DNA from: an uncultured virus (IMG/VR IMGVR_UViG_3300044445_000196)
Lineage: Duplodnaviria > Heunggongvirae > Uroviricota > Caudoviricetes
Direction: 5' to 3' (one strand)
Length of the DNA stretch: 64,000 nucleotides
IMG/VR virus record: IMGVR_UViG_3300044445_000196
The notes beneath the pieces were generated by a model. That model saw only the letters and a list, made by a program, of their open reading frames with translations, made no database searches and had not been told where the DNA came from. Below are positions 5,771-59,545 of this stretch, in pieces; position 1 is the first letter of the stretch; the number at the start of each line of letters is the position of its first letter. Position numbers and translations under genes: made by a program.

Positions 5771-5822
5771 CGTGTGTCGCAGGGTGTGCAGCGACCCCCG
5801 CCCCTCACCTCAGGAGCCCATC

Positions 5823-6272
5823 GTGAACGTCCGCATCCTTTCCCTCTCCGCCGCCACCCTCGGCCTTGCCCTCGCGCTCACCGGGTGCTCGTCCGCCGCG
5901 GACCCGGCACCGTCGGAGCCCGCCCCCATCTCCAGCGAGTCCGCCCCGTCGCCCACCACGGGTGAGGACATCGCGAACTCCGGCGCCGCGGTCCTGCCGC
6001 TGCGTGTCGTCGAGATCGAGAGCAGGGAGGTCGACGGCGTGCAGGTGAATCGTCTTGTGCTCACCGACGCCACCCCGCTGAGCGGGGGCGAGTTCCAGGC
6101 GGTCCTCTCCGTCCTCCCCTCCACCAGCGCCGACAAGATTGCCCTCGTCGCCACCACCGCCGACGGGGCCCCCGTCGACGTCACCTCCGCCGCGGTCGAG
6201 CTGGATGTGCCCCAGGACACGTACCCGGAGGGTGCGCTGTTCACCGCGGACGACATCGACGCTCTTCGCTGA
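5823..6272 (+). CDS. Lipoprotein
   Basis: Signal peptide with lipobox LTGC; AGGAG RBS; GTCGCAGGGT (class C variant) at 5776. Confidence 0.8.
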   Translation: MNVRILSLSAATLGLALALTGCSSAADPAPSEPAPISSESAPSPTTGEDIANSGAAVLPLRVVEIESREVDGVQVNRLVLTDATPLSGGEFQAVLSVLPSTSADKIALVATTADGAPVDVTSAAVELDVPQDTYPEGALFTADDIDALR

Positions 6273-6278
6273 ACCCAC

Positions 6279-6317
6279 CGACAACGGCCCCGGTCACGGT
6301 GACCGGGGCCGTTGTCG
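6279..6317 (+). terminator. Long hairpin/terminator
   Basis: 19-bp perfect inverted repeat. Confidence 0.7.
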
Positions 6318-6338
6318 TCTGCGCGCATAGACCCCGGC

Positions 6339-6623
6339 ATGAGCGCGACGAGCAAGCGGACCTGCCCGCATCCGGAGAAGGCGAGACTGCGTAGCCCCGC
6401 CCACGCCCGCCAGACCGCCGCGTTCGCGGTGCGCGCCGACAACGCCCGACGCCTCATCGCCCCACCGCTGTGGTGGTACCGGTGCACATGCTCCCGCATC
6501 CACCTCACCTCCCGTGAGCCGCGGGAAGAGCCGGACGGGCGAACCACCGGCGTCGCGCACGCCGTCTCAGCCGCGCTGCAGCAGTGGGCGTTCCCCCCGG
6601 TCGCCGCAGGGTACGCGGCATGA
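6339..6623 (+). CDS. Small putative Zn-binding protein
   Basis: C...YRCTC..HLTS pattern; GCGCATAG at 6323. Confidence 0.65.
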   Translation: MSATSKRTCPHPEKARLRSPAHARQTAAFAVRADNARRLIAPPLWWYRCTCSRIHLTSREPREEPDGRTTGVAHAVSAALQQWAFPPVAAGYAA

Positions 6624-6769
6624 GCAAACGAGCCTCCGAACAGCGCGACGACATCACCGCCTGGTTCGCGTCCATGCCCGGCCTGATCTTCTCCGGCATC
6701 GTCCTCGGCGGCGGCGCGCTGTGGTTTATCGGCACCATCGTCGTCACTCTCATAAAGCAGGGGCTCTGA
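6620..6769 (+). CDS. Small single-TM protein
   Basis: Class C motif at 6603, 7 nt before ATG; hydrophobic segment. Confidence 0.6.
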   Translation: MSKRASEQRDDITAWFASMPGLIFSGIVLGGGALWFIGTIVVTLIKQGL

Positions 6770-6771
6770 GC

Positions 6772-7340: not shown

Positions 7341-10300
7341 GTGCCGCAGCGCAACGCAGCGGTCCAGGCTCCCGCGAACTTCGCACCGGTCATCGCGACC
7401 CTCGCCGTCGTCGCGGGGCTTCTGGCCCTCACCTTCCAGCTCCCCGGGGCCCTCATCATCGCCGCGGGAATCTCCGCCGCCGGGTTCTTCTTCAACGCGC
7501 CCCCGCAGCTGAACGCCAAGGAGGTCGTCCCCGAGCACGTTCAACGGCAGTCCCGCCGCTGGCGTGACCTCCGCTGGCGCGCGCTCATCCCCAACGGGGA
7601 CTGGCTGGTGAACCGGCCGGAGGAGATGCCGGCCTACCGCAACGGCGGCCGCGCGCTCACCGAGAAGATCGGAACGAAGCTGCCCGCCGCCGTCCGGGCA
7701 CCCCTCGGCATGCTCGGCGAAGGTCTCGGCGCCGCAGCCTGGCTCATCCTGCCCTCCCGGTGGGTGCCGCTGGTCGCGCTCAGCCTCGCTGCAGCCATCG
7801 CCACGATCCCCGCGAACCTCAGCTCCCTCGCGCAGTGGATGGACCCGGAATACCTCGCGTACGACCTGCTGTGGCTGAACGTCGTCTACACGTACGCCGT
7901 GGTCATGACTGTCGACGCCGTCACCCGCCGCACTGCCGCCGTCGCGGACCCCAGCCCCGGTGTGCCCATCAGCCACCTCACCGGCAAAGCCGCAACCGGT
8001 GACGGCGGTGCCTGGCGCGCGCTCATTGGCTTCGGCTTCCTCGCCGCCGTCATCGCCGTCGGCATCAGCCTCACCCTGCTCTCCCTCGAGCTCGGGTACC
8101 TGTTGGTTCCCGTCTGGCTCACCGGGAGCGGCCTGGGTGTCGCCGCGGCCGCCGGATGCCTGCACGGCGTCTCCCGCACCGGGGCTCTTGCCGCTTGGCG
8201 GGAGAAGGTCGCCGCTCGCGCCGCGTGGGAACCACGGTGGGAGGCGATGAAGAACCCGGAGGTGCGCCTCATCGACCACGCGACGGTCGGGTCCTTCGTC
8301 GTCGACACCTTCGAAGCGCCCCCGTCTCTGGGGTCAGCGAAAGCCATCAACCTCTACAACACCGTCGTGCCCTACCTCGCCGCCGGCGGGGAAGTCACGG
8401 TGGCGATGCTCACCGTGCCCGCGCTCGACAGTCAGGGTCAGCCCATCCCCGGTTCGGCGCACGCGACGCGCTTCCGCGTGGTCGTCGCCCCCGCCGACGC
8501 GGAGGTGAAGACCCGCGACACGGACGTTGATATCGCCGAGCTGAGCCTCGCCGCCGAGGTCGGAGCATTCAACGCCGCCCGCGAGATGGGCGCTCAGGTG
8601 CCGATCCTGCTCGGCCTGGAAGCCGCCCACACCCCCGACAGCCCCGTCGCGGTGTGGAAAACGACCTGGACCGTGCCGCTGGCATCCGCGATGACCGTCG
8701 CCTGGTCGCTCGGGGTGGACCCCGAGACCGGCATCTTCAACGAGGGGCGCGACACGTTCTTCGGCGACTTCGACGCCGCCACCCTCGGCGACCGGACCCT
8801 GCCTGCCCGGATGACGAAAGCCGCGTACGAAGCCCGGTGGATCCAGCGCTGGGCGGACGCGCTGAAACAGGGCGAGAAGCCCCCGCACCTGCAGTACGGC
8901 GCGGTCAAGCGCGAGCGCCTCAGCCCGACGCAGGAGCTGGTGTACGAGCCCTTCCTCGTCGGTCAGGGCCTCTCCCCCGCGCAGTATTTCGGCAAAAGCA
9001 TGCGCGAGCGCCTGTCCACCACGCTGAAAGCCGCTCCTTTCGTCGCCGTCATCGGTCTCACCGGACGCCTCGCCGCAGCCGCCGGACGCCTCGAGGATGG
9101 CATGCGCCACGCGCAGGGGTTCTGTGTTGTGCACTCCGCGACCCCCATCCCCACCAACCCCGCCGACATCGCCAGCCCCGGCCCGCGCGCCCGCGAGGTC
9201 GCGAACTGGGTCATGGGCGGCATCATCAACCGCGCGTTCGAGGACGCCAAGCTCGCCTACCCCGAAGTCATCTCCGCCGAAGCGCTCACCCGCCCGCAGA
9301 GCAAGGGCCACGTCTGGAAGGTGCACCTGCGCCTGTACGAAGGCGTCACCGCAGCGATGCTCAAACTCAACGCGGTCAAGCTCGCGCAGGCGATGGGCGG
9401 CGCCCGCTACCTCCGCTTCGAGGAGAGCACCTACGGCGCGTACGTCATCGTCGGCGCGATGCCGCGCGCAGAAGGGGTGAAGTTCGCCAACCCGATGGCC
9501 CTGGCCTACTGCGACAAGCTCGACTGGATGCAGGCGTTCCAGGACGTCGGCGTCCGCTCCGTCACTGATGGCTCGAGCCCGCTCATGCTGGACAATACCC
9601 CGCACGAGACGAACCCGAAGATCACCCGCCTGACCTTCTCCATGCCGGCGGGTCTGAACCTCGCGAAGATCCGCGAAGTCACCGACAAGCTGCGCGCCGC
9701 CACCGCGAACGACTACGTCGACATCCGCCCCGGAGACACCCCGGACAAGTTCGTCGTGCTCGCCGCGGAACAGAACCCCATCCCCTTCCCTGCCGTGCTC
9801 GACTGGGACGCCTCCGCTGACCTCAGCGGGAAGGGTGAGCACTCCATCCCGTTCGGCTACGCCACCGACGGCACCACCGTCAGCCTGAACTGGAAGAACG
9901 ACTTCCACATGATGGTGCTCGGCGGCTCCGGGTCCGGTAAGTCGTCGTTCATGCAGGTCCTCGTCGCCGGCGCCGTGCTCCGCGACTCCGACATCTTTGT
10001 GATGGACCCCACCAAGGGCGGTGTCGACTTCGAGTTCGCCGCGCCCTGGATCCGCGGGTTCGCCCGCGAAGGCCAGCACCTCGGCGCCGGTGAGCTCACC
10101 CAGCGCATCGGCATGGAGATGGAAGCACGCAAGAAGCTGAACGGCCAGTACGGCGTCGGCAACTACCGCGACCTCCCCGCGGAGGTCCGCCCCCGGCACA
10201 TGTTCGTCATCATCGACGAGTTCCAGTCCCTCATCAAGGAGGTCTCCCGCGGGACGCTGAAAGCCCCCGACACCACCGATGAGGTCGAGCTCGAGCTGTT

Positions 10301-11600
10301 CGAGCAGCGCAAGAACATCAACGACGGCGTCCGCAAGACCGCGATGTGGATCGGCAAGTTCGGCCGTGAGGCCCGCTCCGTCGGCATCACTGTCATCCTC
10401 GCCGGCCAGGGCATCAAGGCGGACGAACTGAAAGCCGTCGGCCTGCAGGGCATGAAGACCAACTTCAGCCGCGTGGCCCTCGGCAAGATGACGCACGGCG
10501 ACATGGCGTCCGCGTTCAAGGACGTCTCCATTCTCCCCAACCTCGGCTCCGTCGTCCCCCAGGGCCGCGGCATCTTCGAAGGCACCTCCGGCGACCCCGT
10601 CGTCATCCAGTCGTGGTTCGAGCCGGGCGGGCAGGCCGAGATGGCACGCCTGCTGGCCGAGCACATGCCACCCATCGACGATGCCACCCGCATTGACGTG
10701 ACGGAGCTGGAAGACCGCGTGAAGTCCGCCACCCCGAAAGGTTTCGGCGAGCTGGTCGAAGACGAACTCCCCGTCGACGACGATGAAGAGACCATCGCGC
10801 TGGACGCCTCGGAGCTCGGGCTCGACATCGGGGGCATGTCGTTCGAGGACCTCGATTTCGCCGCCGACGGCGACACCACCGCGGATGCCGCGACCGAGGC
10901 GGTACCCTCGGCCTCCGACGACGCGGTCGTCACACCAGCGCCCGAGCCGGCGGAGGCCGTGGACGACGCCCCGTGCTATCGCGACATGGTCGTCATTGGT
11001 GAGACGGTCGTCTTCGGCGAGCACGTGGCCTTCGGCGACGGAAGCGTCACGGGGTGGGCCGAGGGTGACGCCCTGGCGACGCTGTTGAGCGAGAACCCCG
11101 CCATCACCGACGTGGTGTGGGTCGACCCGATGCTAGACGAGCTCGATGACATCGGCATCCCCCGCCGCGACATCGCCGCTGACCTCTGCACCCAGCACGG
11201 CGTGACCTTATGGACCGGGGACGACGACGACGACACCGGCGACGACACCGGCGATGCCGAGCCGACCACGGAGCCCGAACCGGAAACCGCGTCCGCGCCG
11301 GAGACGGCCCCAGTGCCAGTCACGGACCTCGAACCGCAGGCGGAGACCACCCCGTCCATCCCGGCGCCGGCCAGCCTCTTGGACCCGCCCGCGGCCGCGC
11401 CGGAACCGGAATCTACCGAGACGCTGTTCGAGATGAACGACTTCGAGCCGGCACCGAACCCGACGCTGTTCGACATGGACGACTTCGAAGAACCGCGATT
11501 CGACCAGCCGCCCCCGAAGGTGCCCGACCTCAGCGACGCGCACGACCTTTTCGCCCCGCGCACGACCAACGCCCCGAAGGTCACCGGTATCGAGTTCTGA
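7341..11600 (+). CDS. Large membrane-anchored FtsK/SpoIIIE-domain ATPase
   Basis: N-terminal TM helices, HMMVLGGSGSGKS, IIDEFQSL, REARSVGITVILAGQ; acidic Pro-rich tail; AGGAG RBS. Confidence 0.85.
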   Translation: MPQRNAAVQAPANFAPVIATLAVVAGLLALTFQLPGALIIAAGISAAGFFFNAPPQLNAKEVVPEHVQRQSRRWRDLRWRALIPNGDWLVNRPEEMPAYRNGGRALTEKIGTKLPAAVRAPLGMLGEGLGAAAWLILPSRWVPLVALSLAAAIATIPANLSSLAQWMDPEYLAYDLLWLNVVYTYAVVMTVDAVTRRTAAVADPSPGVPISHLTGKAATGDGGAWRALIGFGFLAAVIAVGISLTLLSLELGYLLVPVWLTGSGLGVAAAAGCLHGVSRTGALAAWREKVAARAAWEPRWEAMKNPEVRLIDHATVGSFVVDTFEAPPSLGSAKAINLYNTVVPYLAAGGEVTVAMLTVPALDSQGQPIPGSAHATRFRVVVAPADAEVKTRDTDVDIAELSLAAEVGAFNAAREMGAQVPILLGLEAAHTPDSPVAVWKTTWTVPLASAMTVAWSLGVDPETGIFNEGRDTFFGDFDAATLGDRTLPARMTKAAYEARWIQRWADALKQGEKPPHLQYGAVKRERLSPTQELVYEPFLVGQGLSPAQYFGKSMRERLSTTLKAAPFVAVIGLTGRLAAAAGRLEDGMRHAQGFCVVHSATPIPTNPADIASPGPRAREVANWVMGGIINRAFEDAKLAYPEVISAEALTRPQSKGHVWKVHLRLYEGVTAAMLKLNAVKLAQAMGGARYLRFEESTYGAYVIVGAMPRAEGVKFANPMALAYCDKLDWMQAFQDVGVRSVTDGSSPLMLDNTPHETNPKITRLTFSMPAGLNLAKIREVTDKLRAATANDYVDIRPGDTPDKFVVLAAEQNPIPFPAVLDWDASADLSGKGEHSIPFGYATDGTTVSLNWKNDFHMMVLGGSGSGKSSFMQVLVAGAVLRDSDIFVMDPTKGGVDFEFAAPWIRGFAREGQHLGAGELTQRIGMEMEARKKLNGQYGVGNYRDLPAEVRPRHMFVIIDEFQSLIKEVSRGTLKAPDTTDEVELELFEQRKNINDGVRKTAMWIGKFGREARSVGITVILAGQGIKADELKAVGLQGMKTNFSRVALGKMTHGDMASAFKDVSILPNLGSVVPQGRGIFEGTSGDPVVIQSWFEPGGQAEMARLLAEHMPPIDDATRIDVTELEDRVKSATPKGFGELVEDELPVDDDEETIALDASELGLDIGGMSFEDLDFAADGDTTADAATEAVPSASDDAVVTPAPEPAEAVDDAPCYRDMVVIGETVVFGEHVAFGDGSVTGWAEGDALATLLSENPAITDVVWVDPMLDELDDIGIPRRDIAADLCTQHGVTLWTGDDDDDTGDDTGDAEPTTEPEPETASAPETAPVPVTDLEPQAETTPSIPAPASLLDPPAAAPEPESTETLFEMNDFEPAPNPTLFDMDDFEEPRFDQPPPKVPDLSDAHDLFAPRTTNAPKVTGIEF

Positions 11601-12098: not shown

Positions 12099-12181
12099 GT
12101 CAACAACCTAGGGCAGGCACCGCATCGCTCTGGGGCGGTCGGCGCGCATAGGGCGCCCATGACCGAACCCGGAGACCGCCG

Positions 12182-13009
12182 ATGATGGGCGCGCACCACG
12201 CTGGCACCGGTGCCGCCGCGTGGGTAGCCATCACCGCCACCTCCCCCGTCGTTCACACGCTGAACGTCTGGGGACACAACCTCGACGTCCACCTCATCCC
12301 CGCGGTGTCGCTGATGCCGATGGACCCCGCCGCCGTCGCCATCGGCGGTCTCGTCGCCGCGGGCGCCGCGCTCCTGCCGGATGCCGACCACCACAACGCC
12401 ACCATCGCCTACTCCATCCCCGGCGTCGGCAAGGCCGTCACCGCGGCCGTCGGCGCCGCCTCCGGCGGACACCGTCACGGCACGCACTCCGGGCTCTCCG
12501 CCATCGTCGTGTTCCTGCTCGCGTGGATCCTTACCATCGTCCCCGGCATCGTTTCCTCCGAACCTCTGCACCCCTACGTGCTCATCAGCGGGGTCATCGC
12601 CGCCGCGATGTTGTGCTTCGCGCTCAAGGTGCTGAAGATCGTCCGCTCCTGGGGCATGGCCTGGCTGGTCGGCATCGTCTTCTCCTCCGCCATCACCTTC
12701 CTGCTGCCCGAGCAGTGGGCGTGGCTGCCGTGGGCCATCGCCATCGGGTGGGTCACCCACATGGCCGGTGACTTCCTCACCGTCGGCGGCCTCCCCCTCA
12801 CCTGGCCGAAGAACTTCAAGCCGCCAGCCGCCGTCACCGCCACCCCGGTGCTCAAAAACGTCTGGATGAAGAACGGCTACTGGGCCGCGCCCATCCTCGG
12901 CCTCACCGGCAGTTGGCGGGAGTCGATGCTCGCCCTTCCCCTCACCTTCTATGGCCTGTTCGGGATCGCCGCCTCGGCAGTGATGCTGCTGCCTTTCTTC
13001 CCCGAGTGA
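12182..13009 (+). CDS. Membrane metal-dependent hydrolase (YdjM-like)
   Basis: MGAHH, LLPDADH, HRHGTHS, THMAGDFLT motifs with TM helices. Confidence 0.85.
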   Translation: MMGAHHAGTGAAAWVAITATSPVVHTLNVWGHNLDVHLIPAVSLMPMDPAAVAIGGLVAAGAALLPDADHHNATIAYSIPGVGKAVTAAVGAASGGHRHGTHSGLSAIVVFLLAWILTIVPGIVSSEPLHPYVLISGVIAAAMLCFALKVLKIVRSWGMAWLVGIVFSSAITFLLPEQWAWLPWAIAIGWVTHMAGDFLTVGGLPLTWPKNFKPPAAVTATPVLKNVWMKNGYWAAPILGLTGSWRESMLALPLTFYGLFGIAASAVMLLPFFPE

Positions 13010-13070
13010 TGTCCGCCGCAGGGTATCGGGCACCTACCTGTCCTGCGCCAACAGAGAGAACCACCCTCAC

Positions 13071-13966: not shown

Positions 13967-15094
13967 ATGGCCCGCAAGAACAAGAAAACCCCGGACGACC
14001 AGCCCGGGCTGCTCGACGCCGACGGCGTCGGCACCGACGACCTCCTCCACGTCAACTACGCCGCGCCCAACCAGGTGCTGCACGAGAAGTCCAGCCGACG
14101 TCGGAAGATCTTCGCCGTCACCTTCATCGTCGTCGCCTGCGGCGTGACGCTGAACGGCATCGCGCAGATCGCGAACCCACCTGTCGCCGAATCCGGCGGT
14201 GTGACCGCGAGCAGCACCGACGTGAACTCCTCGCGCGGAAAGTCGCTCGCGCACGACAAGATCAACCGCTGGCTCGCGCAGACCCCGTCGCCGCTGCCCG
14301 GCGGGTACATCGTCTCGTGGGACGGCTTCACCGACATCGCCGCCGGTGTCTCGGAAAACAAGGCTGAAAGCCCCGCCAACGCCGCAGAACTGCACACCTT
14401 CACCCTCGCGGCCAGGGTCGGCAACGACAGCACAGCCTTCTACGAAGCCACTGTTCTCGTCTCCGTCGACGACACCCTCGGCGCCATCACTGCCGCCGAG
14501 CCGTCGCTGCTGCCTCGCGTGCCCTCCACCACGCAGGGATGGTCGTCACAGACCTGGGCCGGGTACGAGACCGGTGCGAGCTCGCAGACGTTCGTACCCA
14601 CCGCCGAAGCCTGGGCGAAGGCGTTCACCGGTAGCGCCGCGGAGCTGCGCCTGTACGTCGGCGATGAGGACCCCAGCCACTCGTACATGCCGCTGCAGGG
14701 CGCTCGCGTCCTCGGCACGCAGGTGCTCAAGACCGGCTACATCAAGCCCGAGGACAACACCAACAAGGCAGAGCCGGAGACCCTTATCGCCCGCGTCGAG
14801 GTGACACTCGCCTGGTCTGCCGCCGCCGACGCGAAGGGTTCCAAGGTCACCTACGACGTCTTGGTCACCCGCGCCAACACCGCGAGCCCGCGCATCGTCG
14901 CGTGGGGACCGTCCGGTACGGGCCCGACCCTCGAGGCGTACGGCAACGCCATTCGCGGCGCCCAAATCTCCAGCGGCCCCGACAAGTCCGCACCCACCGC
15001 CGCGCCCGAACCGGCCGCCGACACGACCCAGGGCAGCGCCCCTGTCCTGGACAACATCGACCAGGCGCCCGCCCAGGAAGGAACCCAGGGCTGA
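13967..15094 (+). CDS. TcpC/VirB8-like conjugal transfer protein
   Basis: Bitopic protein with large extracellular part directly upstream of the VirB4-like gene; call rests on architecture and position. Confidence 0.55.
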   Translation: MARKNKKTPDDQPGLLDADGVGTDDLLHVNYAAPNQVLHEKSSRRRKIFAVTFIVVACGVTLNGIAQIANPPVAESGGVTASSTDVNSSRGKSLAHDKINRWLAQTPSPLPGGYIVSWDGFTDIAAGVSENKAESPANAAELHTFTLAARVGNDSTAFYEATVLVSVDDTLGAITAAEPSLLPRVPSTTQGWSSQTWAGYETGASSQTFVPTAEAWAKAFTGSAAELRLYVGDEDPSHSYMPLQGARVLGTQVLKTGYIKPEDNTNKAEPETLIARVEVTLAWSAAADAKGSKVTYDVLVTRANTASPRIVAWGPSGTGPTLEAYGNAIRGAQISSGPDKSAPTAAPEPAADTTQGSAPVLDNIDQAPAQEGTQG

Positions 15095-17622
15095 TGGCCA
15101 AGGGAAAGAACACCACCCCCGCACCCAGCGCTGTCGGCAGCAACAACACCGTCGGCCGCCGCCCGGTCTTCGAGTCGCGCGCCCGCAAGCCCCGCCCCGA
15201 CGGCCGGGTCGTCGGTGTCGACAACAGTGTGTGGCTGTACCGCACCGTCCCGCTCGGCTCCATCCGCGACGCCAAGACAACCGCCGAGGCGCTCAACATC
15301 AGCGGCCCGCTGGCCCACGCGTTCGCCGAGCTCGCCGGTCTGGCCACCACCCGAGGCATCAACCGGGCGCTGGCGAAGAAGAAGTACCGCGAGTTCCACC
15401 TCGTGCTCACCAACTACCCGAAGTGGTACGAGGCGCCGGCGTCCAGCCCCATCAAGAGCGACCTGAACCGCTGGTTCCAGGACCTCCAGGTCCTCGACCG
15501 TCGCGTGATGCTCGGTGTGCGCCTGGCCCCCTCGACCGGCGATGGTAGCGCGAAGGGCTTCCTCAACTCCGTCGAGCAGACCCTCTTCCACGGCGGTGTG
15601 CTCGAATCCGACTACGACAAGGACTTCCATCAGGTCTCTGCCGCAATGGACCGGGCGGGCTTGGGCACCCCCACCGCTGCCGACTGGGCAGCCGTGGACG
15701 GCTGGTGGAACCTCGGCGACCCCCGCCCCGTCGCGGAGCTCCGCCACACCGACCACATCCACTTCTTCTCCCGCCGCTCGGCGTGGGAGGACGCCGAGGA
15801 CGAGGGTCTGCTCGAGTGCGAGCCGTGGCTGGACCTGCCCCAGCACCGAGCCATCACCTTCGCCTCCCTCGCCGAGTTCGACCTGGGCTACACCCCCGTC
15901 GACGACAGCAAGACGTGGTGGGCCACCGACCTGGTGAACCTCGGCGCCCGCGTGGTCAGCGCCCGCGGCTTCATCGAGCCGCCCACCATCACCCGCCAGG
16001 AGCTCAAGACCACCCGGCGCAAGATGCGCGTCGACCTCGAAGAGGGCTACCAAAAGGGCAAGGACCAGGCCCGCCGCGAGGAGCGCGAGCAGGAGATCAA
16101 CTCCATCGAGGCGCAGTACGACATCGGCAAGGACGACATGCCGCCGACCATCGTCGACCTCTCCGTCATCGTGGGCCTCGCGGGCGTCTACTCCGACGAG
16201 GAAGCCATCCGCGTCTCCGCCGGGACGCTCTACATCATGAGCAACCGCCAGCTGCAGGCGTGGCACGAGACCATGATCTGCTCCGGCGTCCGCGGCAACC
16301 CGCACCTGCACGACGTGCCCGCGACCACCCTCGCCTACGCCGGGTTCAGCAACCTCACCCGCGTCGGCGACCCGGACGGCGCGTTCCTCGGGCTCACCCA
16401 CGACAAGCAGCCGGTGTACATGTCCCCCGTCGCCGCCTCCTCCGGCGACTCCGCGCCCCTGTGCCTCGTGGGCGCTGCCACCGGTTCCGGCAAGACGGTG
16501 CTGCTGCAGTGGATCGCGAAGCAGCACGGCATGATGGGCACCCCCACGGTCATCATCGACCCCAAGGAAGGCAGCGACCTGCGCGCGGCGTTCATGGACG
16601 TCCCCGGCTTCCAGGTGCGCAGCTTCGACGACTTCATCTCCTCCGACGGTGGCCTGGACCCCCTGACGCTGTACCCCACCCCGGCCGAGGGCATCCCGCT
16701 GGCCGCGGACATGCTGTTCAACGTCAACCCGTGGGGTAACGACGACCGCCGCAAGTACGAAGCGGAGATCGCCAACGCCATCCGCTACGGCGTCGAGCAC
16801 GGCGCACAGGTCACCGGCCAGGCGCTGGCCATCGCGTTCAAGGCCGGCCAGGTCTCCCGCGAAGCAATCGAGCCGGTGTTCAAGGTCGCGGCGACCTTCC
16901 CGATGTTCCGAGCGACCTTCGGCATGCAGCCGCCGGCGGAGGGGTCGAGCCTGGCGAAGTCGAACAGCATCACGCTGTTCATGCGAGGCAACTCCCCCCT
17001 GACGCTGCCGCCGATGGGCCGTGAACTCGCGCAGGACGAGATGTCCTCCGTCATGCGCCAGTCCGTGAACCTGCTGCGCCTGCTGGTGCGCGGATCCCTC
17101 ATCGCCCTCAGCGGCCGCGGCGGCGTCCTGCACATGGACGAGGCGTGGGTGCTCGAACGCGCCACCCCGCAGGAGCTGAACGAGGTCGGTCGTCTCGCCC
17201 GCTCGATGCAGGTGCTGCCGATCTTCTACACGCAGACCCCCACCGGTCCGCTCAAGCTCGGCCTGAAGGGGTACTTCTCCCGCGGGCTCATCGGCCACAT
17301 CTCCGACTCCGACGAAGCCGCCGCCGGCCTTGAGCTGTTCGGTGCGAAGCGACCGTCCACCCACGCGCGCGTCATCGCCCCCGACACCCTCGCCGGCGAC
17401 CAGGGCGCGAACCACAACTCCCTCAAGGCGCTGTGGACCTCCCGCGACCCGAACACCGGCAAGCGCACCCTGCTGCGCGGGTCCGAGTTCATGTATGGCG
17501 ACCTCAAGCAGCGCTTCGCTGCAACGACGGTCATGATGCCCGCGGAGTTCCTCGAACAGGCGTCCACGACGCCGGAGGACGTGGCTCGGCGGATGCGGGA
17601 GCTGCAGGCGCGCAGCTCCTAA
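15094..17622 (+). CDS. VirB4-like conjugation ATPase
   Basis: GAATGSGKT, VIIDPK, LHMDEAW, RLARSMQVLPIFYTQ. Confidence 0.85.
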   Translation: MAKGKNTTPAPSAVGSNNTVGRRPVFESRARKPRPDGRVVGVDNSVWLYRTVPLGSIRDAKTTAEALNISGPLAHAFAELAGLATTRGINRALAKKKYREFHLVLTNYPKWYEAPASSPIKSDLNRWFQDLQVLDRRVMLGVRLAPSTGDGSAKGFLNSVEQTLFHGGVLESDYDKDFHQVSAAMDRAGLGTPTAADWAAVDGWWNLGDPRPVAELRHTDHIHFFSRRSAWEDAEDEGLLECEPWLDLPQHRAITFASLAEFDLGYTPVDDSKTWWATDLVNLGARVVSARGFIEPPTITRQELKTTRRKMRVDLEEGYQKGKDQARREEREQEINSIEAQYDIGKDDMPPTIVDLSVIVGLAGVYSDEEAIRVSAGTLYIMSNRQLQAWHETMICSGVRGNPHLHDVPATTLAYAGFSNLTRVGDPDGAFLGLTHDKQPVYMSPVAASSGDSAPLCLVGAATGSGKTVLLQWIAKQHGMMGTPTVIIDPKEGSDLRAAFMDVPGFQVRSFDDFISSDGGLDPLTLYPTPAEGIPLAADMLFNVNPWGNDDRRKYEAEIANAIRYGVEHGAQVTGQALAIAFKAGQVSREAIEPVFKVAATFPMFRATFGMQPPAEGSSLAKSNSITLFMRGNSPLTLPPMGRELAQDEMSSVMRQSVNLLRLLVRGSLIALSGRGGVLHMDEAWVLERATPQELNEVGRLARSMQVLPIFYTQTPTGPLKLGLKGYFSRGLIGHISDSDEAAAGLELFGAKRPSTHARVIAPDTLAGDQGANHNSLKALWTSRDPNTGKRTLLRGSEFMYGDLKQRFAATTVMMPAEFLEQASTTPEDVARRMRELQARSS

Positions 17623-17698: not shown

Positions 17699-17808
17699 GC
17701 GCGCCACCCCCGGTGTCACGGAACCGAAAACGGCCCGCGCGCATGGCGCCGGGCATGAACACGCACACCGCCAGCGCACTTTCCGAGACCGCCGCGCACA
17801 TGCCGGCC

Positions 17809-19387: not shown

Positions 19388-19418
19388 GGCGTATCCGGGC
19401 GCCGCGCACATGAGTGCC

Positions 19419-20234: not shown

Positions 20235-20360
20235 GCCCCATCGAGGAAGAAGACATCGACTGACAGGTGAGCTGCGCGCGCCCGCGCGCAGCGAGCCCGA
20301 GAGCGAGCGCGGCGCCCCATCGCCGCAGGGTACGCGGCGACGGAAGGAACCGCTCTCACC

Positions 20361-22615: not shown

Positions 22616-22664
22616 CCTCCACCCGCCGCCGCCGCAGACGCACCCACGCCGCAGGGTGATGGAC

Positions 22665-23255: not shown

Positions 23256-23276
23256 AGCCACGCGCATAGGGCTGGC

Positions 23277-23498: not shown

Positions 23499-23586
23499 GA
23501 GTGGGCCTTCATTGAGCGCGTAGCGGAGCGCAAGAACCCCGAAACCGCCAGGGCGGGTCTCCATCCCGGAGACCCGCCCTTCTCTC
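23447..23586 (+). ncRNA. Candidate structured small RNA
   Basis: Class C motif at 23430, several short stems, closing terminator hairpin 23550-23580. Confidence 0.3.
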
Positions 23587-41981: not shown

Positions 41982-42488
41982 GTGACGCACACCACTCCGC
42001 CCAAAGCCACTACCTACCCCCGCATCTCACGCTACGGCTGGTACGGCCTGGCAGGCGCGCTCATCGCCCTCCTGGTCTCCGCATCCCTCGCCATCCCGGC
42101 CGTCACCGACTCCCTCAAACGCGGGGAGGCGCTCGCGCAGATGACCTCCGCCACCGCCGAGCTCGAGCAGGCGGACGAAGCGGTTGAATCCGCCATAGGT
42201 GCAGTACGTGACGCGCGGCAGCAGGCAGCCGCCGCCGTCGTGGGACGTGACGCACGGAGCACAGAGACCCTGCGCAGCCTTGCCCGGGTCACCGCCGACG
42301 GGCAGCTCGACGGGGAAGTCTTCCCCCAGGGACCCCCCGCGGCCAGCTCCCCCGTTCTCCCCACCACCCCGCAGGGCATGCGCGCCCGTGCGGAGGAGAA
42401 CAGCGCCGCAGCGGCCGACCGCGCCGCGCGCGCCGAGCTCTACCGCGTACGAGCCGAGGAGATCACCCGCGCTGCGGCGGCGCTGTGA
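41982..42488 (+). CDS. Membrane-anchored coiled-coil protein
   Basis: TM plus Ala-rich helix; CCGCATAG 7 nt before GTG. Confidence 0.7.
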   Translation: MTHTTPPKATTYPRISRYGWYGLAGALIALLVSASLAIPAVTDSLKRGEALAQMTSATAELEQADEAVESAIGAVRDARQQAAAAVVGRDARSTETLRSLARVTADGQLDGEVFPQGPPAASSPVLPTTPQGMRARAEENSAAAADRAARAELYRVRAEEITRAAAAL

Positions 42489-42501
42489 CGCATAGGCGAG
42501 C

Positions 42502-42888: not shown

Positions 42889-42926
42889 TGACCACCACCG
42901 CCACTCCCACCGCGCATGGATCCCCC

Positions 42927-45669: not shown

Positions 45670-45854
45670 GCGAGCTTTCGGGCTGTGACAGCTGCGGCGG
45701 GCTGTCGGGCGAGGTGAGCACTGAGGGAGCTGCTCGCGTGTTGGGGACATTCCCCTAACGTTGACCTACCCATGCGCGGGCTACTGGTTTTTGCGTGACA
45801 CCTCAAGTTGAGTACCCCGGTTGACTCATATGTTGCACGCATGTTATGCGAGTG

Positions 45855-47157: not shown

Positions 47158-47181
47158 ATGTGCGCGGCGCGCCGCGCACAT
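47158..47181. promoter_or_regulatory. Back-to-back class A motifs (divergent promoter pair)
   Basis: ATGTGCGCGGC-GC-GCCGCGCACAT; each half 7 nt from an ATG (47150 minus, 47189 plus). Confidence 0.8.
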
Positions 47182-49324: not shown

Positions 49325-49383
49325 GGGTTCTCCGTGGTGGGCGGTGGAGCGGGATGTCGCCCCTATGCGCGCTCCGGGAATGC

Positions 49384-52074: not shown

Positions 52075-52111
52075 GCTGTCCATGTACCCGGCACCTCGCT
52101 ATATTCAGCGC

Positions 52112-52663
52112 ATGGGCCTAGTGGACGACGCGGACAGTCATTCGAGGAAGTGGGCGACTGCTGCGCGCACGAGAGCCGACCACGAAGCATCGCTCGACGA
52201 GCCGTTGCGCGAGGTCTGGGTGAGTGAATTGGTCGGGATGCTGCAGCAGAGCCGCATCCCGCCATTGCCTGTGTATTTACAACACGACCGGTTCGCACGC
52301 CAATCGTGGCTGGGGCGAATGACCTGTGACGTGACCTTCTGGGGGATGGCGTGGTCCCTACATGGCAGGTACCATGACGCCGACCGGAACACCTCGGATT
52401 ATGTGTTGCTGGTTCCCGATGGCCAGCTCTTCTCCGGCTCCGTCACTCTCATGCCAGGCAAAGCCAGTCCTATCTCCTACGCCGGCGTTCACGCAGATCA
52501 CCTCCAGCTTTGGGGCCACACAACGATTGTCCCATCACGCATTACCCGCAGGGGCGGGGCCGATCTTCGCACCCGGGTCGGTCTCAGTGTTGCGGCTGCG
52601 CTCCGGCGTGGGGACATGCCGGTGCAGGGCACGATTGAGGGGTTGAGTTCAGTTCACTACTGA
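52112..52663 (+). CDS. Hypothetical protein, paralog 1
   Basis: MGLVDDADSH; TATATT 6 nt before ATG. Confidence 0.7.
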   Translation: MGLVDDADSHSRKWATAARTRADHEASLDEPLREVWVSELVGMLQQSRIPPLPVYLQHDRFARQSWLGRMTCDVTFWGMAWSLHGRYHDADRNTSDYVLLVPDGQLFSGSVTLMPGKASPISYAGVHADHLQLWGHTTIVPSRITRRGGADLRTRVGLSVAAALRRGDMPVQGTIEGLSSVHY

Positions 52664-52748
52664 CGGCGGTGCGCCGCCATCAGAACCGGCCAGCGTGACT
52701 CGCCTCCGCGTGGTGGAGGACTCGCCGGTGTCCCGCTATGTTCAGCGC

Positions 52749-53273
52749 ATGGGCCTTTTGGACGACGCGGACGCACATCTCCAGCGGGAAGCGCAGAAAG
52801 CGCGCGAGCGCGAAGAGGAAAGGAGGCGCGCGGCTGAACCCGTCCGCGAGGACTGGATGTCTGAGCTGGTTGAACTTCTCCGTGCACATCGGGTGCAGCC
52901 TTGGCCCATGTACGTCATCACGGAGCGGACGGAGAGGAACTCGTTCTTCAGTTCCATGTCGGTGCACGAACAGGTGAGCCTGTGGGCCGAGGGATGGGTA
53001 CTGACCGGATTCGACCCGACGAGAAACGACGGTTTCGGCGCGACATTCAGTGTCATTCTCACCACGGACGGGTCCATGTGGAATCTGGGCAGGCAAAGAA
53101 CAAAGCAGCCTCACGGAACCGCCACACGCGGCTTTCGCCCGGGGCATGTTCTGCGCCACATCTTGTACGAGGATGCACCTCAGCCCCAACGGGGATCGGG
53201 CTCCGACGGCCATCTGCGCGAATGGGTCGGGGTTCGCGTCGCAGCGGCGCTCCGCAGCGGAGCCGCCATCTAG
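52749..53273 (+). CDS. Hypothetical protein, paralog 2
   Basis: MGLLDDADAH; TATGTT 6 nt before ATG. Confidence 0.7.
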   Translation: MGLLDDADAHLQREAQKAREREEERRRAAEPVREDWMSELVELLRAHRVQPWPMYVITERTERNSFFSSMSVHEQVSLWAEGWVLTGFDPTRNDGFGATFSVILTTDGSMWNLGRQRTKQPHGTATRGFRPGHVLRHILYEDAPQPQRGSGSDGHLREWVGVRVAAALRSGAAI

Positions 53274-53545
53274 CTACGGGCGTCATTGCGACCCTGCGCC
53301 CTCCCCACGGAGACTGCGGTCAGGAACGGTCTGAGGCCGTCTGACTCCAACGGTGTAAGCGCTGAACACCATTGCGCCTGGATGTTCCTAACGTTTCTGC
53401 CAAGCTCGCTGGAGGATGTGTGGGAGTCGACTTCCGCGACCTCATCGGCGCCCCCACCGCAGTTGCACTCACCCGTGGGGACAAGCCCCAGCGAGGCACG
53501 CTGGTCGCCTGGTAAGCCCACCCCGCCTGCATGTCACACCATGAT

Positions 53546-54286: not shown

Positions 54287-54320
54287 GTGACTGTCCATGC
54301 GCGGTTCCCCGCGCGCGGTG

Positions 54321-55064: not shown

Positions 55065-55194
55065 GCTCGTCATGTGCGCGGCGGCTCCGGCTTCTTCGCG
55101 GGGGTCAGGGGCTCCCCTATGCGCTCCGCGGGCGGGTTCTCCGGGCGCTTGCGCTTGGCGGCGCGGTCGAGCTTGCGCCGGCGGGACGCGGCGG

Positions 55195-56732: not shown

Positions 56733-56737
56733 ACCGG

Positions 56738-57787
56738 TCATGTGCGCGGCGCGCGGAGGGCGGCGTACATGCCCTGGAACTCGTCGAAGTCCCGGGCCTG
56801 CTTCGCCGAGACAACGTCCCGGTCGATGGTGCGAGTGGTGCCGCCGAAACCGTCGTCGACTTCGATGACCGCGCCCGGGTGAGCCAGCAGCCCGTCGCGC
56901 AACTTGCCCCACGCTTCGTCGAGGTCGGCCTGCCGGCGGGGCGGGTTGCCGGGACGGCCGTAGTCGCGGTCGAGGGTGTAGGGCTCGGGGTATTCCACAC
57001 GCGGGGGTGTGCGGTGGCGGGTGTCGGGGGTGTACGCCTCGGTGAGCGTCATCGGTCCGACGTCTGGGAGTCGCTCGTCGAAGCGGGCGCGGGCGTCGTC
57101 GTTGCCGCACAGACTGCGTGCTTCGGTGACGGCGAGGTCGTACTCGTGGGGTGCGTAGTACCCGTGCGGGAGGGGGCCGGGCTCGCCGATGTAGAGGTCC
57201 TGGCGGACGTCGGCGCTGTGGCCGAAGCCGTAGACCTCGACCTTGTAGGCGGGAGTGCCGGTCGCTTGCCACAGCGCACCGTCGATGACGCGGTAACCCT
57301 CGAGGTCGGTGTTGGCGTTTCGTTCGAGGGAGGCGCGGATGAACTGGTCCGTGGCGTGGGCGGGGTAGGTCTCGTCGCGGTATCCGCGGTGCAGCTGCCC
57401 GACGGTATCCGAGGTGACCTGCTGGTGCTGCCCGTCGCGGTCTTCGACGGGTCGAAACATGCGCCCGTCGATGGTGCGGATCTGGATGACGCCGTCCCCC
57501 TGCGGGTCCCAGCGGGAGCTGGACATCGTGAGCGCGACCGGGGCGTCCTCGGCGTCGACGACAGCGACACGGACCGGGACGGTGGCCTCGAGCTCGACGT
57601 CACGGGGCTTGCGTGCGCGGGGTGGGATGACGTCGCGCTGGGTGTACCGGATGGTCGCCTCACCGACGACCTCGCTCGGTGCGGCGTCCAAGCTCAGCTC
57701 GGGGGCGGAGCGCGCGTGCTCGCCGAACTCTCCGGTGGACTGGCGGGCGTTCTCGCGGCGGGCGGCGGCATCACGGGAGATGGTCAT
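56738..57787 (-). CDS. Shared-peptide hypothetical protein
   Basis: RENARQSTGEFGEHARSAPELSL; class A motif 57795-57805. Confidence 0.8.
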   Translation of the reverse strand: MTISRDAAARRENARQSTGEFGEHARSAPELSLDAAPSEVVGEATIRYTQRDVIPPRARKPRDVELEATVPVRVAVVDAEDAPVALTMSSSRWDPQGDGVIQIRTIDGRMFRPVEDRDGQHQQVTSDTVGQLHRGYRDETYPAHATDQFIRASLERNANTDLEGYRVIDGALWQATGTPAYKVEVYGFGHSADVRQDLYIGEPGPLPHGYYAPHEYDLAVTEARSLCGNDDARARFDERLPDVGPMTLTEAYTPDTRHRTPPRVEYPEPYTLDRDYGRPGNPPRRQADLDEAWGKLRDGLLAHPGAVIEVDDGFGGTTRTIDRDVVSAKQARDFDEFQGMYAALRAPRT

Positions 57788-57805
57788 GGCTCCTATGTGC
57801 GCGGC

Positions 57806-58303
57806 TCAGGAGGAGAACGCTCGCGCGCGGGACGCCCGGGCCCAGATCCGGACGTCGATGACGAGGAGGTCTCGCAGGCGTTCGCGCGCTTGCTGAGCCG
57901 CGCCCGCGGCGTCGGCACTGTCGATGTCGGCGGTGTGTTCGACGGCGATTTGGCCGAGGGCGATGTCGTCCGCGGGGGCGGGCGCTCCGTTGCGGGTGAT
58001 GGGGCGGTGGGCCTGGCCGAGGTAGATCCGTTCGCCGCGGTCGGGGTCGTTCACGGTGGCATCGGCTGAGGTCTCATGCACGCGCACGTCGACGGGCACC
58101 TGCTCGACGCGGGTCCGTCCGAACCACCCTCGCCGGGTGACGGGAACACCGAGGCGAAGGGTGCGGGTGCGGACGGTACGCGCGGATGCTGCTGCCCCGG
58201 CGACGCGAGGGGGAACGCTCACCTCGGGGGCAGAGTGCTCCTGTGCGCCGAACTGGCCGGCGGCCTGCCGGGCGTGCTCGCGTCGTGCTGCGTTGTCGTG
58301 CAT
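57806..58303 (-). CDS. Shared-peptide hypothetical protein, partial paralog of the 57787 gene
   Basis: REHARQAAGQFGAQEHSAPEVSV; class A motif 58311-58321. Confidence 0.75.
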   Translation of the reverse strand: MHDNAARREHARQAAGQFGAQEHSAPEVSVPPRVAGAAASARTVRTRTLRLGVPVTRRGWFGRTRVEQVPVDVRVHETSADATVNDPDRGERIYLGQAHRPITRNGAPAPADDIALGQIAVEHTADIDSADAAGAAQQARERLRDLLVIDVRIWARASRARAFSS

Positions 58304-58340
58304 GACTGCCATGTGCGCGGCCAGCGCGGGCCACCCGCTG

Positions 58341-58904
58341 TCAGCGGCGGCGGCCGCCGCGGGGCCGGGGTGCGCGAACGGTCGCGCCGGCGGGGAGAGC
58401 GCTCGTGTCCGCGGCGGGGTCGCCGTAGCCGGTGCCCTGCTCGCTCTCGATGCCGGCGGCGCCGCGCTCGGAAGCTGCGACGGCCTTGATGTCCGCCCAG
58501 GCGTTGAGGACGTGCCCGCTGTGGCCCTTCACCTTCACAAGGGTGGCGGCGGGGAGGCCGCGGGCGCGGCGGGCGTCCCGAACTTGGATGAGCTGGCGCA
58601 TGATGTCGGGGTTCGCGACGGGGGTTCCGCTGGCGGTGACCCAGCTCTTGCGGTTCCAGCCGTCCATCCACTTGTCGTACGCGTTGATGACGTATTGGCT
58701 GTCGATGAGGACGGTGAGTTCGGGGACGTCGGCGTGGTGGTCGAGGGCGTTCAGCAGTGCGAGCAGTTCGCCGATGTTGTTGGTGCCGTCGCGGAGGGAC
58801 CCGGATTCCCAGCGGCCGTCCTCGCTGACCCACGCCCAGCCGGTGGGGCCGGGGTTGCGCTTGCAGGCGCCGTCGGTGGCGATGGTCACGGGGCTGGGGC
58901 TCAC
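58341..58904 (-). CDS. rnhA: Ribonuclease HI
   Basis: TDGACKRNPGP, TNNIGEL, IDSQYV, VKGHSG..LN..AD. Confidence 0.95.
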   Translation of the reverse strand: MSPSPVTIATDGACKRNPGPTGWAWVSEDGRWESGSLRDGTNNIGELLALLNALDHHADVPELTVLIDSQYVINAYDKWMDGWNRKSWVTASGTPVANPDIMRQLIQVRDARRARGLPAATLVKVKGHSGHVLNAWADIKAVAASERGAAGIESEQGTGYGDPAADTSALPAGATVRAPRPRGGRRR

Positions 58905-59047
58905 AGGGGTCTCCTCAGGTTGAGGAACGTCGCGGGCGCAGGCTGGCCTCGCCGAGCTGAAGTAAGCAGCACGGGTCGTGGGGGCCTTCGGCAGGAAAAG
59001 CTATGTCCGAGCCGGGGACCGTTGACGCCCCGCGACGTTCAGTGGGT

Positions 59048-59545
59048 CTATGCGCGGGCGACGAAGGAGGTGATCTCCCCGTCGGGGTCCAGCGTGTACT
59101 TGTGCGGGGTCTCCCCGTCCACGTACGCCATCACGTCGTAGTAGTCGTCGCTGTGGCCGGACTCGAAGACGTAGAGGGCCGCTTCGGAGCCGTTGGGGTG
59201 CGTGTTCTCGATGTGCTCGCGCAGCACCTCGGGGATCGTGTGCTTGGAGGATGCCGCCTCGAGGTCTGCGCGCAGATGCGCGATCTCGGCCTGCGCGTCG
59301 GCGAGGAGGCTGGCGGCATGGCCGGAGTTGTCGGTCTGAAAGTCCTCCCAGTCCTCGTACGCGTCATCGTCGCCATCGGCTTCCGCATACGCCTCCTGGG
59401 CGTCTGTGTAGTCGTTGAGGTAGGCGGCGATCTGTTCGTCCAGTGGCGGCTTCTCGGCGGTGAGCGCGGCTTCCGGGGCGGAGTGCCCTTTGGCGGTGAA
59501 CTCCCCGGTAGCGGCACGGGGGTGGTCCTCGGGGGTGAAGGTCAT
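59048..59545 (-). CDS. Shared-peptide acidic protein
   Basis: EDHPRAATGEFTAKGHSAPEAAL. Confidence 0.8.
   Translation of the reverse strand: MTFTPEDHPRAATGEFTAKGHSAPEAALTAEKPPLDEQIAAYLNDYTDAQEAYAEADGDDDAYEDWEDFQTDNSGHAASLLADAQAEIAHLRADLEAASSKHTIPEVLREHIENTHPNGSEAALYVFESGHSDDYYDVMAYVDGETPHKYTLDPDGEITSFVARA

Follow-up and report, generated by a model that had tools for sequence, protein, structure and literature searches.

The bacteriophages T4 and SPO1 mark their genes with private promoter words that consist of a −10 element only and come in several classes; the T4 late promoter, TATAAATA, is read by gp55, and the SPO1 cascade uses gp28 and gp33/34. Integrated elements can rely on a master factor of their own, as SXT/R391 does with SetCD and ICEclc with BisDC, both of which are element-encoded activators that switch on many transfer promoters. 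In mycobacteriophages, short asymmetric words stand before many genes, either as the start-associated sequences of cluster K, which have a Shine-Dalgarno (SD)-like core, or as the stoperators of cluster A, which have no fixed register relative to the start codon. Here we analyzed a stretch of 64 kb (the window) of a 146-kb contig recorded as an uncultured virus (IMG/VR IMGVR_UViG_3300044445_000196); all window-level counts and absences given below refer to these 64 kb. Three short related words, designated classes A, B, and C, precede many genes of this stretch. Taken as a whole, they are best explained as private −10-block promoters of large conjugative elements of Micrococcales that define three regulons and are read by an element-encoded factor, a reading to which we assign a probability of roughly two-thirds.

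The words share some features with each of these systems. As in the T4 and SPO1 cascades, a mobile element would mark its genes with private −10-only words of several classes, but the carrier here is a conjugative element, and a complete relative has no phage structural genes of the kinds sought (see below). As with SetCD and BisDC, an element-encoded master factor would serve the transfer promoters of an integrated element; those activators, however, bind upstream of ordinary promoters, whereas here the conserved block would itself be the −10 region and many transcripts would be leaderless. Short asymmetric words before many genes of an actinobacterial mobile element are also what the mycobacteriophage sequences of clusters K and A present. 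Unlike the former, the words of the window have no GGAGG-like core and occur also at 29–143 nucleotides (nt) from genes, and unlike the latter they stand in a fixed register relative to the start codon.

Two bacterial promoter types are closer in anatomy. In Corynebacterium glutamicum, 33% of the mRNAs have no leader, and at most promoters a −10 element is the only one to be seen (PMC3890552). The σA promoters of leaderless genes have their −10 hexamer, TANNNT, a few nt ahead of a transcription start that is also the start codon (PMC3890552). They place a −10-region block at a short fixed distance from the start codon, with no SD sequence and little or no −35 element, and one promoter type serves genes with and without a leader. 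The words of the window have the same layout, but those of classes A and B are not TANNNT, they are confined to the element, and they form three discrete types with separate gene sets. The composite −10 element of σ28 (FliA/WhiG) is given as (−15)GCCGATAA(−8), with A−11 flipped out (PMC12784957). The words of classes A and B likewise form a one-piece 8-bp block at −15 to −8 with G−15, C−14, and A−11, if the A of the ATG is taken as +1 (the assumed start), and a divergent protein whose profile has its best match in FliA is encoded by elements related to the window. The differences are that σ28 uses a TAAA-like −35 element, which has no conserved equivalent at our words, that GCGCATAG of class B agrees with GCCGATAA in only five of eight letters, and that the window contains no such sigma gene. 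A literature search found no description of private leaderless promoters on actinobacterial conjugative elements among the papers that it listed, which is no proof of absence.

Three discrete words in non-coding DNA

An earlier note on this DNA, which proposed that three upstream motifs partition the genes by function, had spelled out classes B and C only, and the class A word was deduced in the present analysis. It is GCGCACAT, always in the form GCC-GCGCACAT, and has 11 matches in the window, compared with 3.31 ± 1.80 in dinucleotide shuffles (largest count 9). The class B word, GCGCATRG, has 23 matches (6.97 ± 2.47 in 100 dinucleotide shuffles, largest 12), and the class C word, GCCGCAGGGT, has 10 (0.49 ± 0.69, largest 2). 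In none of the three classes was the observed count reached by any shuffle, which bears out the enrichment over background for all words. They were also recovered by motif scans. In an unbiased scan of all 8-mers located at −15 to −8 of any ATG, the top ones were GCGCACAT (11 of 11 occurrences) and GCGCATAG (5 of 11), with GCGCATGG found at this position in 3 of 12 occurrences, and the enrichment of 7-mers in intergenic DNA returned the same three words. At non-coding sites, the core [G/C]CGCA is followed by GGG (13 sites), TAG (12), TGG (10), or CAT (10), with all other suffixes at five sites or fewer. Because four suffixes dominate after a shared core, the three classes are discrete. GCGCA occupies positions −15 to −11 in classes A and B alike, as had been claimed.

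The words are almost confined to non-coding DNA, which makes up 9.5% of the window by codon-usage gene calls. For class B, 18 of the 23 matches are non-coding, a further three coincide with the end of a gene or with a start that is miscalled or doubtful (42912, 55124, and 59055), and two are located within genes (28766, antisense, and 55675, sense).

Register and leaders

The distance between the end of the word and the start codon is exactly 7 nt (N7) at all 11 class A sites, at 8 of the 23 class B sites, with three more at 8 nt (N8), and at three of 12 class C sites, when two variants of that word are included. At sites that have no start codon at N6–8, a purine stands at position 8 behind the word in 9 of 9 cases for class C and 9 of 12 for class B of the window, and in 12 of 16 and 14 of 14 cases for two words of a relative in Microbacterium sp. 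oral taxon 186 (G003), i.e. in 44 of 51 sites in total; a pyrimidine occupies position 7 in 40 of these sites. A pyrimidine at −1 and a purine at +1, at a fixed distance, are typical of bacterial transcription starts. We infer from this that each block places the start of transcription 8 nt beyond its end. A start codon located there would make the mRNA leaderless; otherwise, the transcript would have an SD-containing leader of 30–60 nt or would be a non-coding RNA. The words that abut a start codon leave no space for a ribosome-binding site, and the same words also lie 29–143 nt upstream of genes, in several cases with an SD-like sequence in between (the FtsK-type gene at 20361 and the genes at 30429 and 49324).

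Most class A words contain an ATG in frame with the downstream gene (GCGCACATG). This internal ATG is not the start codon: it is missing from three of the 11 words, which have CATC or CATA in its place, and in G003 it is out of frame at one class A-like site. A GTCAC or GTGTCAC box was found 17–19 nt upstream of four of 21 class B words (at ∼17712, 23610, 30347, and 45799 on the minus strand) and may represent a −35-like element or a factor site that only some of the promoters have. With GTGTCAC at no more than a few class B sites, there is little reason to invoke WhiA or an ECF sigma factor.

One class C word (23430–23439, plus strand) heads a candidate structured small RNA at 23440–23590 on the same strand, which begins directly after the word and has a terminator-like hairpin at its end. 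These ∼150 nt have 82% DNA identity to the closely related locus L005, compared with 70% for the neighboring FtsK gene, and are also kept in the related locus L002. The conserved fold has 44 predicted pairs, six of which show compensatory changes. No Rfam family matched at the gathering score, including in 23440–23590. The segment is probably a small RNA, judging by its conservation and predicted fold. The pyrimidine/purine signature at a fixed register and the presence of a word at the head of a structured RNA point to −10-region promoter blocks that give leaderless or short-leader transcripts. Most likely, on this sequence evidence, the words act as promoters and are neither chance occurrences nor translation signals.

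Conservation and restriction to the element family

The FtsK-type proteins of the three closest relatives, L001, L002, and L005, are 81, 82, and 64% identical to that of the window. At orthologous sites of these loci, the A, B, and C words and their N7/N8 spacing are kept, and the letters of the spacers and the flanks differ. Of 12 loci examined, 10 have GCCGCAGGG(G)T (that is, GCCGCAGGGT or GCCGCAGGGGT) upstream of the FtsK orthologue, the lowest protein identity among them being 47%; L003 and L004 were counted as one locus because they are near-identical. The exceptions are L012, which has no word, and L014, which has GCAGGGCT at N7. Overall 8-mer counts in the relatives are dominated by codon usage.

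A further relative, L013, is part of the 3.2-Mb genome of G003, in which the words are concentrated in a single stretch, C2:∼116.4–326.1 kb. The genome contains 57 matches to CCGTGCATGTG (four to its reversed control), 54 of them in this stretch, 32 matches to GCCGCAGGGGT (control two), 29 of them in the stretch, and 13 matches to CCGCACTCATG (control none), 10 of them in the stretch; all 43 genome matches to GTGCATGT-N7-ATG (control one) fall within it. The matches in the stretch span C2:118.8–326.1 kb. The stretch starts with an excisionase-like open reading frame (ORF) and a tyrosine integrase gene that adjoin a host gene, and it ends with a dUTPase gene that adjoins host transporter genes. 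Besides VirB4 and FtsK, its products include an ArdC-like protein, SSB, the DNA polymerase III alpha subunit, a prepilin peptidase, and a T2SSF-type pilus protein; genes for a capsid or a terminase were not found in it. Its gene content and borders identify it as an integrated conjugative element (ICE) of ∼210 kb. The geometry of its sites is the same as in the window, with blocks at −15 to −8, a C-like word that ends at −8, and N7 to the start codon. The window itself encodes a VirB4-type ATPase and FtsK-type translocases which, with the integrase at the border of the relative, correspond to a conjugative element of the type IV secretion kind; no relaxase was identified.

In Microbacterium esteraromaticum (G004), GGGTATGT-N7-ATG has 26 matches (control one), all of which lie within 137 kb of one contig. 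The class C word of the window occurs at background level in two related chromosomes (22 matches versus 26, and 13 versus 16). Since the three 11-mers are at control level in G003 outside the ICE, no host regulon appears to use them. By these counts, the words seem to be private to the element family, and the promoters in which they would form the −10-region blocks would belong to that family and not to the host.

Three gene sets

Regulon A would comprise proteins with a shared N-terminal tag. On the plus strand, class A words are found at 5028–5035 (ATG 5043, a 229-amino acid (aa) protein), 17794–17801 (ATG 17809), 19404–19411 (ATG 19419), and 47174–47181 (ATG 47189, a DUF7007 protein). On the minus strand, they are found at 47158–47165 (ATG 47150, a 431-aa protein of phrog_2319), 55072–55079 (ATG 55064, a DUF7226 protein), 56740–56747 (ATG 56732), 57795–57802 (ATG 57787; a CATA form with no internal ATG), 58311–58318 (ATG 58303), 60336–60343 (ATG 60328), and 62444–62451 (ATG 62436). 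The two words at 47158–47181 are divergent and stand back to back, forming a perfect 24-nt palindrome between their genes. As the earlier note had proposed, class A goes with the tagged genes: all of the products except that of 17809 (10 of 11) carry G-x-F-G...(S/T/D)(A/P)PE in their first 35 residues. The whole tag is a peptide of ∼35 aa, ..AA..ARE.AR..G.FG.Q.HSAPE, present in 13 proteins of the window; the other three start at 59545, 61804, and 63266 on the minus strand and are SD-led; two of these, if not all three, immediately follow class A genes. The class A-like sites of G003 at N6–7 number 10, and every one of them heads a protein that starts with MSTFDE-LHPRGQA-NAGQF--K-N-AP; one of these proteins is ArdC-like. 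The tag could be an export or transfer signal, as far as its sequence suggests.

The class A word at 17794 has a particular setting, because its ATG is in frame 54 nt within an ORF that begins after a class B word (17739–17746, plus strand, N8 to ATG 17755). This nested pair is kept in L001 and L002, as is the N8 spacing of its class B member, and the two starts, 17755 and 17809, would yield two forms of one protein.

Regulon B would contain enzymes of nucleic-acid metabolism together with many small genes of no assigned function, in agreement with the gene set described before. Seven plus-strand words are located at N7: 12144–12151 (ATG 12159), 23262–23269 (ATG 23277), 23633–23640 (ATG 23648; kept in L002 and L005), 27206–27213 (ATG 27221, DUF7455), 32627–32634 (ATG 32642, a PTH2-like gene), 33032–33039 (ATG 33047), and 42912–42919 (ATG 42927, a DinG/YoaA-like helicase). 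The word at 32560–32567 on the minus strand is at N7 to ATG 32552. The ORF at 12159 has only eight codons, and its stop overlaps the start of a YdjM-like gene at 12182 (ATGA), so that 12159–12185 is possibly a leaderless upstream ORF coupled to that gene. Besides 17739, the N8 words are GCGCATAG at 6323–6330 (plus strand, ATG 6339) and the word at 54295–54302 (minus strand, ATG 54286, SprT-like). Two variants precede GTG codons on the plus strand, CCGCATAG at 41967–41974 (N7 to 41982) and ACGCATAG at 42488–42495 (N6 to 42502).

The remaining class B words stand farther from a start or have another setting. Those at 29714–29721 and 30370–30377 (both plus strand) lie 40 nt ahead of the dUTPase (dut) start at 29762 and 51 nt ahead of the SD-led start at 30429. 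On the minus strand, 41758–41765 is 39 nt ahead of the start at 41718, 49363–49370 is 38 nt ahead of that at 49324, and 45770–45777 is ∼100 nt ahead of the HA-domain gene; the TAG of 59048–59055 is the stop codon of the gene at 59048–59545, and this word is 143 nt ahead of the RNase H start. The word at 34602–34609 (plus strand) is at the 34597/34606 gene junction, and that at 55117–55124 (minus strand) is 37 nt upstream of the class A word ending at 55079. All class B sites that the earlier note had named, including the variant before 41982 and the extra copies upstream of dut, the SprT-like gene, the RNase H gene, and the HA-domain gene, were thus located, with the word ending 7 nt before each of the seven ATG starts listed there (23277, 23648, 27221, 32552, 32642, 33047, and 42927).

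Regulon C would include the VirB4 operon, the small RNA, and the genes for DNA translocases and for pilin-like and surface proteins. Three class C words, all on the plus strand, end 7 nt before a start codon, as had been noted: 6603–6612 precedes ATG 6620 of a 49-aa ORF that is followed by a NERD gene and the gene for the 1419-aa FtsK/HerA-like protein, 22648–22657 precedes GTG 22665 of a membrane protein, and 33957–33966 precedes GTG 33974. On the same strand, 13015–13024 is 46 nt ahead of 13071 at the head of the VirB4-like operon, 20322–20331 is 29 nt ahead of the FtsK/TraB-like gene at 20361 (a site kept in L001, L002, and L005), and 25346–25355 is 41 nt ahead of 25397, which encodes a DUF285/PARCEL surface protein with a pilin-like N-terminus. 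On the minus strand, 41773–41782 is 54 nt ahead of the start at 41718, in tandem with the class B word ending at 41765 immediately downstream of it. The words at 30763–30772 and 30941–30950 (plus strand) have no called gene downstream; they lie in a 461-nt gap and could head small ORFs or RNAs. The latter was considered as a homologue of a class C site of G003 that is followed by a hairpin, and the alignment was unconvincing. Two plus-strand variants complete the class: GTCGCAGGGT at 5776–5785, 37 nt ahead of a lipoprotein gene at 5823 (lipobox LTGC), and GCCGCAGGGG at 28595–28604, 45 nt ahead of 28650, which encodes a second pilin-like N-terminus. The ten exact positions and the two variants of the earlier note were all recovered, and the gene set that it had assigned to this class (translocases, VirB4 operon, pilin-like and surface proteins, and lipoprotein) holds.

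The assignment of genes to classes is maintained between elements. When the gene calls of the window were paired with those of the G003 element using BLASTP, 23 of 78 window proteins had a partner, and for 10 of these the promoter could be read on both sides. The class agreed in all 10, at protein identities of 31–64%. The small ORF before the NERD gene, the head of the VirB4 operon, FtsK, and a pilin-like gene are class C in both elements; the helicase, dUTPase, HA-domain, and 58-aa genes are class B; and the DUF7007 and phrog_2319 genes are class A, the G003 orthologue of the latter behind a variant word. The PTH2-like gene and the gene for a 163-aa protein are inside G003 operons headed by a B-like word, which is consistent with their class, although indirectly. 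One exception was observed in G003, where a tagged protein is encoded behind a B-like word at N8 (218476). The conserved division into three gene sets, in which the words partition genes by function, is well supported by these comparisons.

Search for a factor that may read the words

The words of classes A and B are not TANNNT, no −35 element is conserved, the hosts do not use the words, and the elements of two Microbacterium hosts carry different words, each uniform inside its element; together, these observations point to a reader encoded by the element. It would consist of one or more specificity factors, and the element genes would be silent until it is made. The three classes would be controlled separately. 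In the G003 ICE, searches with PF04542, PF08281, and TIGR02937 at E ≤ 1 gave only helix–turn–helix (HTH)-level matches to a resolvase and a transposase, and hmmscan of 214 of its 223 proteins gave no sigma or RNA polymerase domain at E ≤ 1e−4. The other nine are products of genes that cross the borders of the 20-kb pieces used, and the candidate described below is among them. The two-barrel RNA polymerase motif DxDGD occurs in the G003 element only in a 75-aa ORF.

The best candidate for the reader is a divergent σ70-family protein of the FliA (σ28) type from the related elements. It has 296 aa in G004 (C26:71114–72004), in which it was found by a weak region-2 match, and a 285-aa homologue with 33% identity in G003 (C2:274291–275148). 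The 296-aa protein reaches only 16.9 bits in Pfam, for Sigma70_r2. For its AlphaFold model (pLDDT 71), all 50 Foldseek matches listed are sigma chains of RNA polymerase initiation complexes, 38 of them at E ≤ 1e−3 (best, 2.4e−5). The family has 227 representatives at E ≤ 1e−3, and a profile of 148 members matches FliA (1rp3) at E = 4e−8, with 15 of 16 PDB matches at E ≤ 0.01 being sigma factors; 14 of the 148 members reach Sigma70_r3 individually. On the strength of the sigma-only structural matches and the match of the family profile to FliA, the protein is predicted to be a divergent sigma factor of the FliA kind that is missed by Pfam profiles. Its gene in G004 has an SD sequence but no private word ahead of it, as might be the case for a first-tier regulator. 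The gene upstream of it, for a protein of 277/318 aa, has no family match and no clear likeness to the candidate.

A second protein, of 336/345 aa (L038:1646–2656 in G004 and L035:4996–6033 in G003), has a tag-like N-terminus and weak signals only: 15 bits for Sigma70 regions 2 and 3, Atlas feature scores below 0.9 to sigma clusters, a Mycobacteriophage_Gp53 match just below the cut-off, and an AlphaFold model with pLDDT 52. It may be a second sigma-like factor and is regarded as a lead. The dedicated sigma factors proposed in the earlier note are plausible for the family as judged from structure and profile matches, but no such factor lies within the window and none is tied to a class; the staged expression proposed with them is a hypothesis.

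Weighing of the explanations

Several observations weigh against private promoters read by an element-encoded factor. Positions −12 to −7, where the σA hexamer TANNNT (ending ∼6–7 nt before the transcription start) would be expected, read CACATN in class A and CAT(A/G)GN in class B, with C at −12 and no T at −7, and the distance between A and T in class C, CAGGGT in the window, is one base longer in the relative (CAGGGGT). No conserved column was found upstream of the words in any class, as a −35 element would produce. The class B matches at 52108–52115 and 52745–52752 (plus strand), which lie in the two copies of a 48-nt repeat after TATATT and TATGTT, respectively, may be another kind of site. 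A part of the likeness among class A sites may reflect common descent and not independent selection, because these sites share the downstream tag-coding module. No sigma or RNA polymerase gene was found in the window with Pfam, PHROGs, and NCBIfam or with the family profile on six-frame ORFs, and the sole similarity to such proteins is the LuxR-type HTH of an 814-aa protein. The profile of the sigma candidate family found no member in the window, L001, L002, or L005, and none of the 20 family members listed is on a contig of the size of that of the window or its closest relatives. The elements that have the candidate encode FtsK orthologues that are only 46–48% identical to that of the window, and the candidate corresponds to no particular class. 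Its Foldseek TM-scores are low (0.2–0.3), although poor superposition is expected for models of multi-domain sigma factors. Finally, no RNA run is among the sequencing runs listed as containing the stretch (23 rows; the DNA is mostly from leaf metagenomes).

The words could instead be promoters for a host sigma factor, primary or alternative, with the classes as variants in strength or condition and no element-encoded factor. The study cited above describes −10-only promoters as frequent in Actinobacteria and up to a third of mRNAs as leaderless (PMC3890552), the CAGGGT of class C (−13 to −8) fits nANNNT as the only class to do so, and no sigma gene lies within the window. However, none of the 43 GTGCATGT-N7-ATG sites is located in the ∼3 Mb of G003 outside the ICE, the class was swapped in none of the 10 orthologous pairs, and the uniformity of words within, but not between, the elements of two Microbacterium hosts is not expected of a host factor. 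This explanation is therefore considered unlikely.

We regard as more doubtful still a role of the words as operators of an element-encoded repressor or activator that overlap core promoters, with the distance to the start codon as a by-product. Such operators would suit words that are asymmetric, co-directional with transcription, present in dozens of copies, and similar to the stoperators of cluster A mycobacteriophages, and the genes of an ICE need to be silenced while it is integrated. Against this, no second −10-like element was seen at the sites besides the words themselves, an operator does not need a register that is exact to one base, as found at each of the 11 class A sites and for the B-like word of G003 at 43 sites, and the pyrimidine/purine signature follows at a fixed distance after the word.

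An action on RNA or translation, as a start-associated sequence of the kind found in cluster K mycobacteriophages or as a processing site that makes leaderless mRNAs, is very improbable. The place just upstream of start codons would fit, and 7 nt is also a typical SD spacing, but the words have no resemblance to an SD sequence, they also occur far upstream of genes, several of which are SD-led, and one heads a non-coding RNA. Least credible is the view that the words have no function at present and were left behind when 5′ gene modules were repeatedly duplicated or recombined. Only the constant association of class A with a tag-coding 5′ end speaks for it, since flanks, spacers, and tag-coding DNA have diverged around an invariant class A word, B and C precede unrelated genes, and the words are conserved across relatives.

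The preferred explanation of private promoters with an element-encoded reader can be extended to a self-contained, three-tier transcription system on giant conjugative elements of Micrococcales, in which one-piece promoters would be read by their own divergent σ28-like factor(s). The class A tier would provide export-tagged proteins, including the ArdC-like anti-restriction protein, that are sent through the mating channel and deliver defense-breakers, and perhaps a transcription starter, into the recipient before gene expression begins there. A protein of relatives that is weakly sigma-like and has a tag-like N-terminus is encoded behind a word other than that of class A. This extended scheme is speculative, and we think it unlikely to hold in full.

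Other features of the window

The window has a G+C content of 69% and ∼78 genes by codon-usage gene calls, which were not curated. The VirB4-like ATPase (AAA_10) is encoded at 15094–17622, and the two FtsK_SpoIIIE-type translocases at 7341–11600 (1419 aa, FtsK/HerA-like) and 20361–22181 (606 aa, FtsK/TraB-like). Other products are NERD, YdjM-like, and Excalibur proteins, a DUF285/PARCEL surface protein, and the 814-aa LuxR-type regulator, and the genes related to nucleic acids are those for dUTPase, a DinG/YoaA-type helicase, an HA-domain protein, a SprT-like protein, and RNase H. The protein that the earlier note had labeled TcpC has 375 aa and no family match in Pfam, PHROGs, or NCBIfam. A tRNA scan of the window found no genes, and no near-identical DNA was present in deposited plasmid and phage collections. 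The 606-aa FtsK-type protein has relatives in Microbacterium, Brevibacterium, Agromyces, and Curtobacterium and in metagenomes; several of these relatives, ∼1000–1060 aa long, contain Hint or LAGLIDADG domains, i.e. inteins within the translocase.

Two non-coding segments have repeats. Six copies of CTTGGCAG, in both orientations, are located at 4733–4996, in the 264 nt of non-coding DNA ahead of the class A gene at 5043 (seven copies in the window, 1.4 expected), and this cluster is possibly a binding-site array, e.g. one that serves partition, an origin, or a regulator. The region at 52084–53545 is ∼1.4 kb nearly without a convincing gene (one 31-aa ORF was called) and has a G+C content of 0.65. 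The 48-nt direct repeat lies in this region, with copies at 52088 and 52725 that are 85% identical and carry the hexamers TATATT or TATGTT immediately ahead of GCGCATGG; a second repeat, of 42 nt (52592 and 53459), is also present.

Implications

If the proposed explanation is correct, conjugative elements of 140–210 kb that are widespread in Microbacterium and its relatives would each hold dozens to ∼100 genes under promoters that the host does not use. The borders of such elements would be readable from sequence, as the words stop there. Gene starts could be corrected, as many genes would be leaderless and the apparent ‘MxxM’ extension of class A products would be the promoter's own ATG, and genes of no assigned function could be sorted into those for the mating apparatus, tagged proteins, and nucleic-acid functions. 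The candidate reader would lead to a family of sigma factors that Pfam profiles miss. Cultured Microbacterium strains would be a tractable system in which the silence of an integrated element, and then its ordered switch-on, could be followed.

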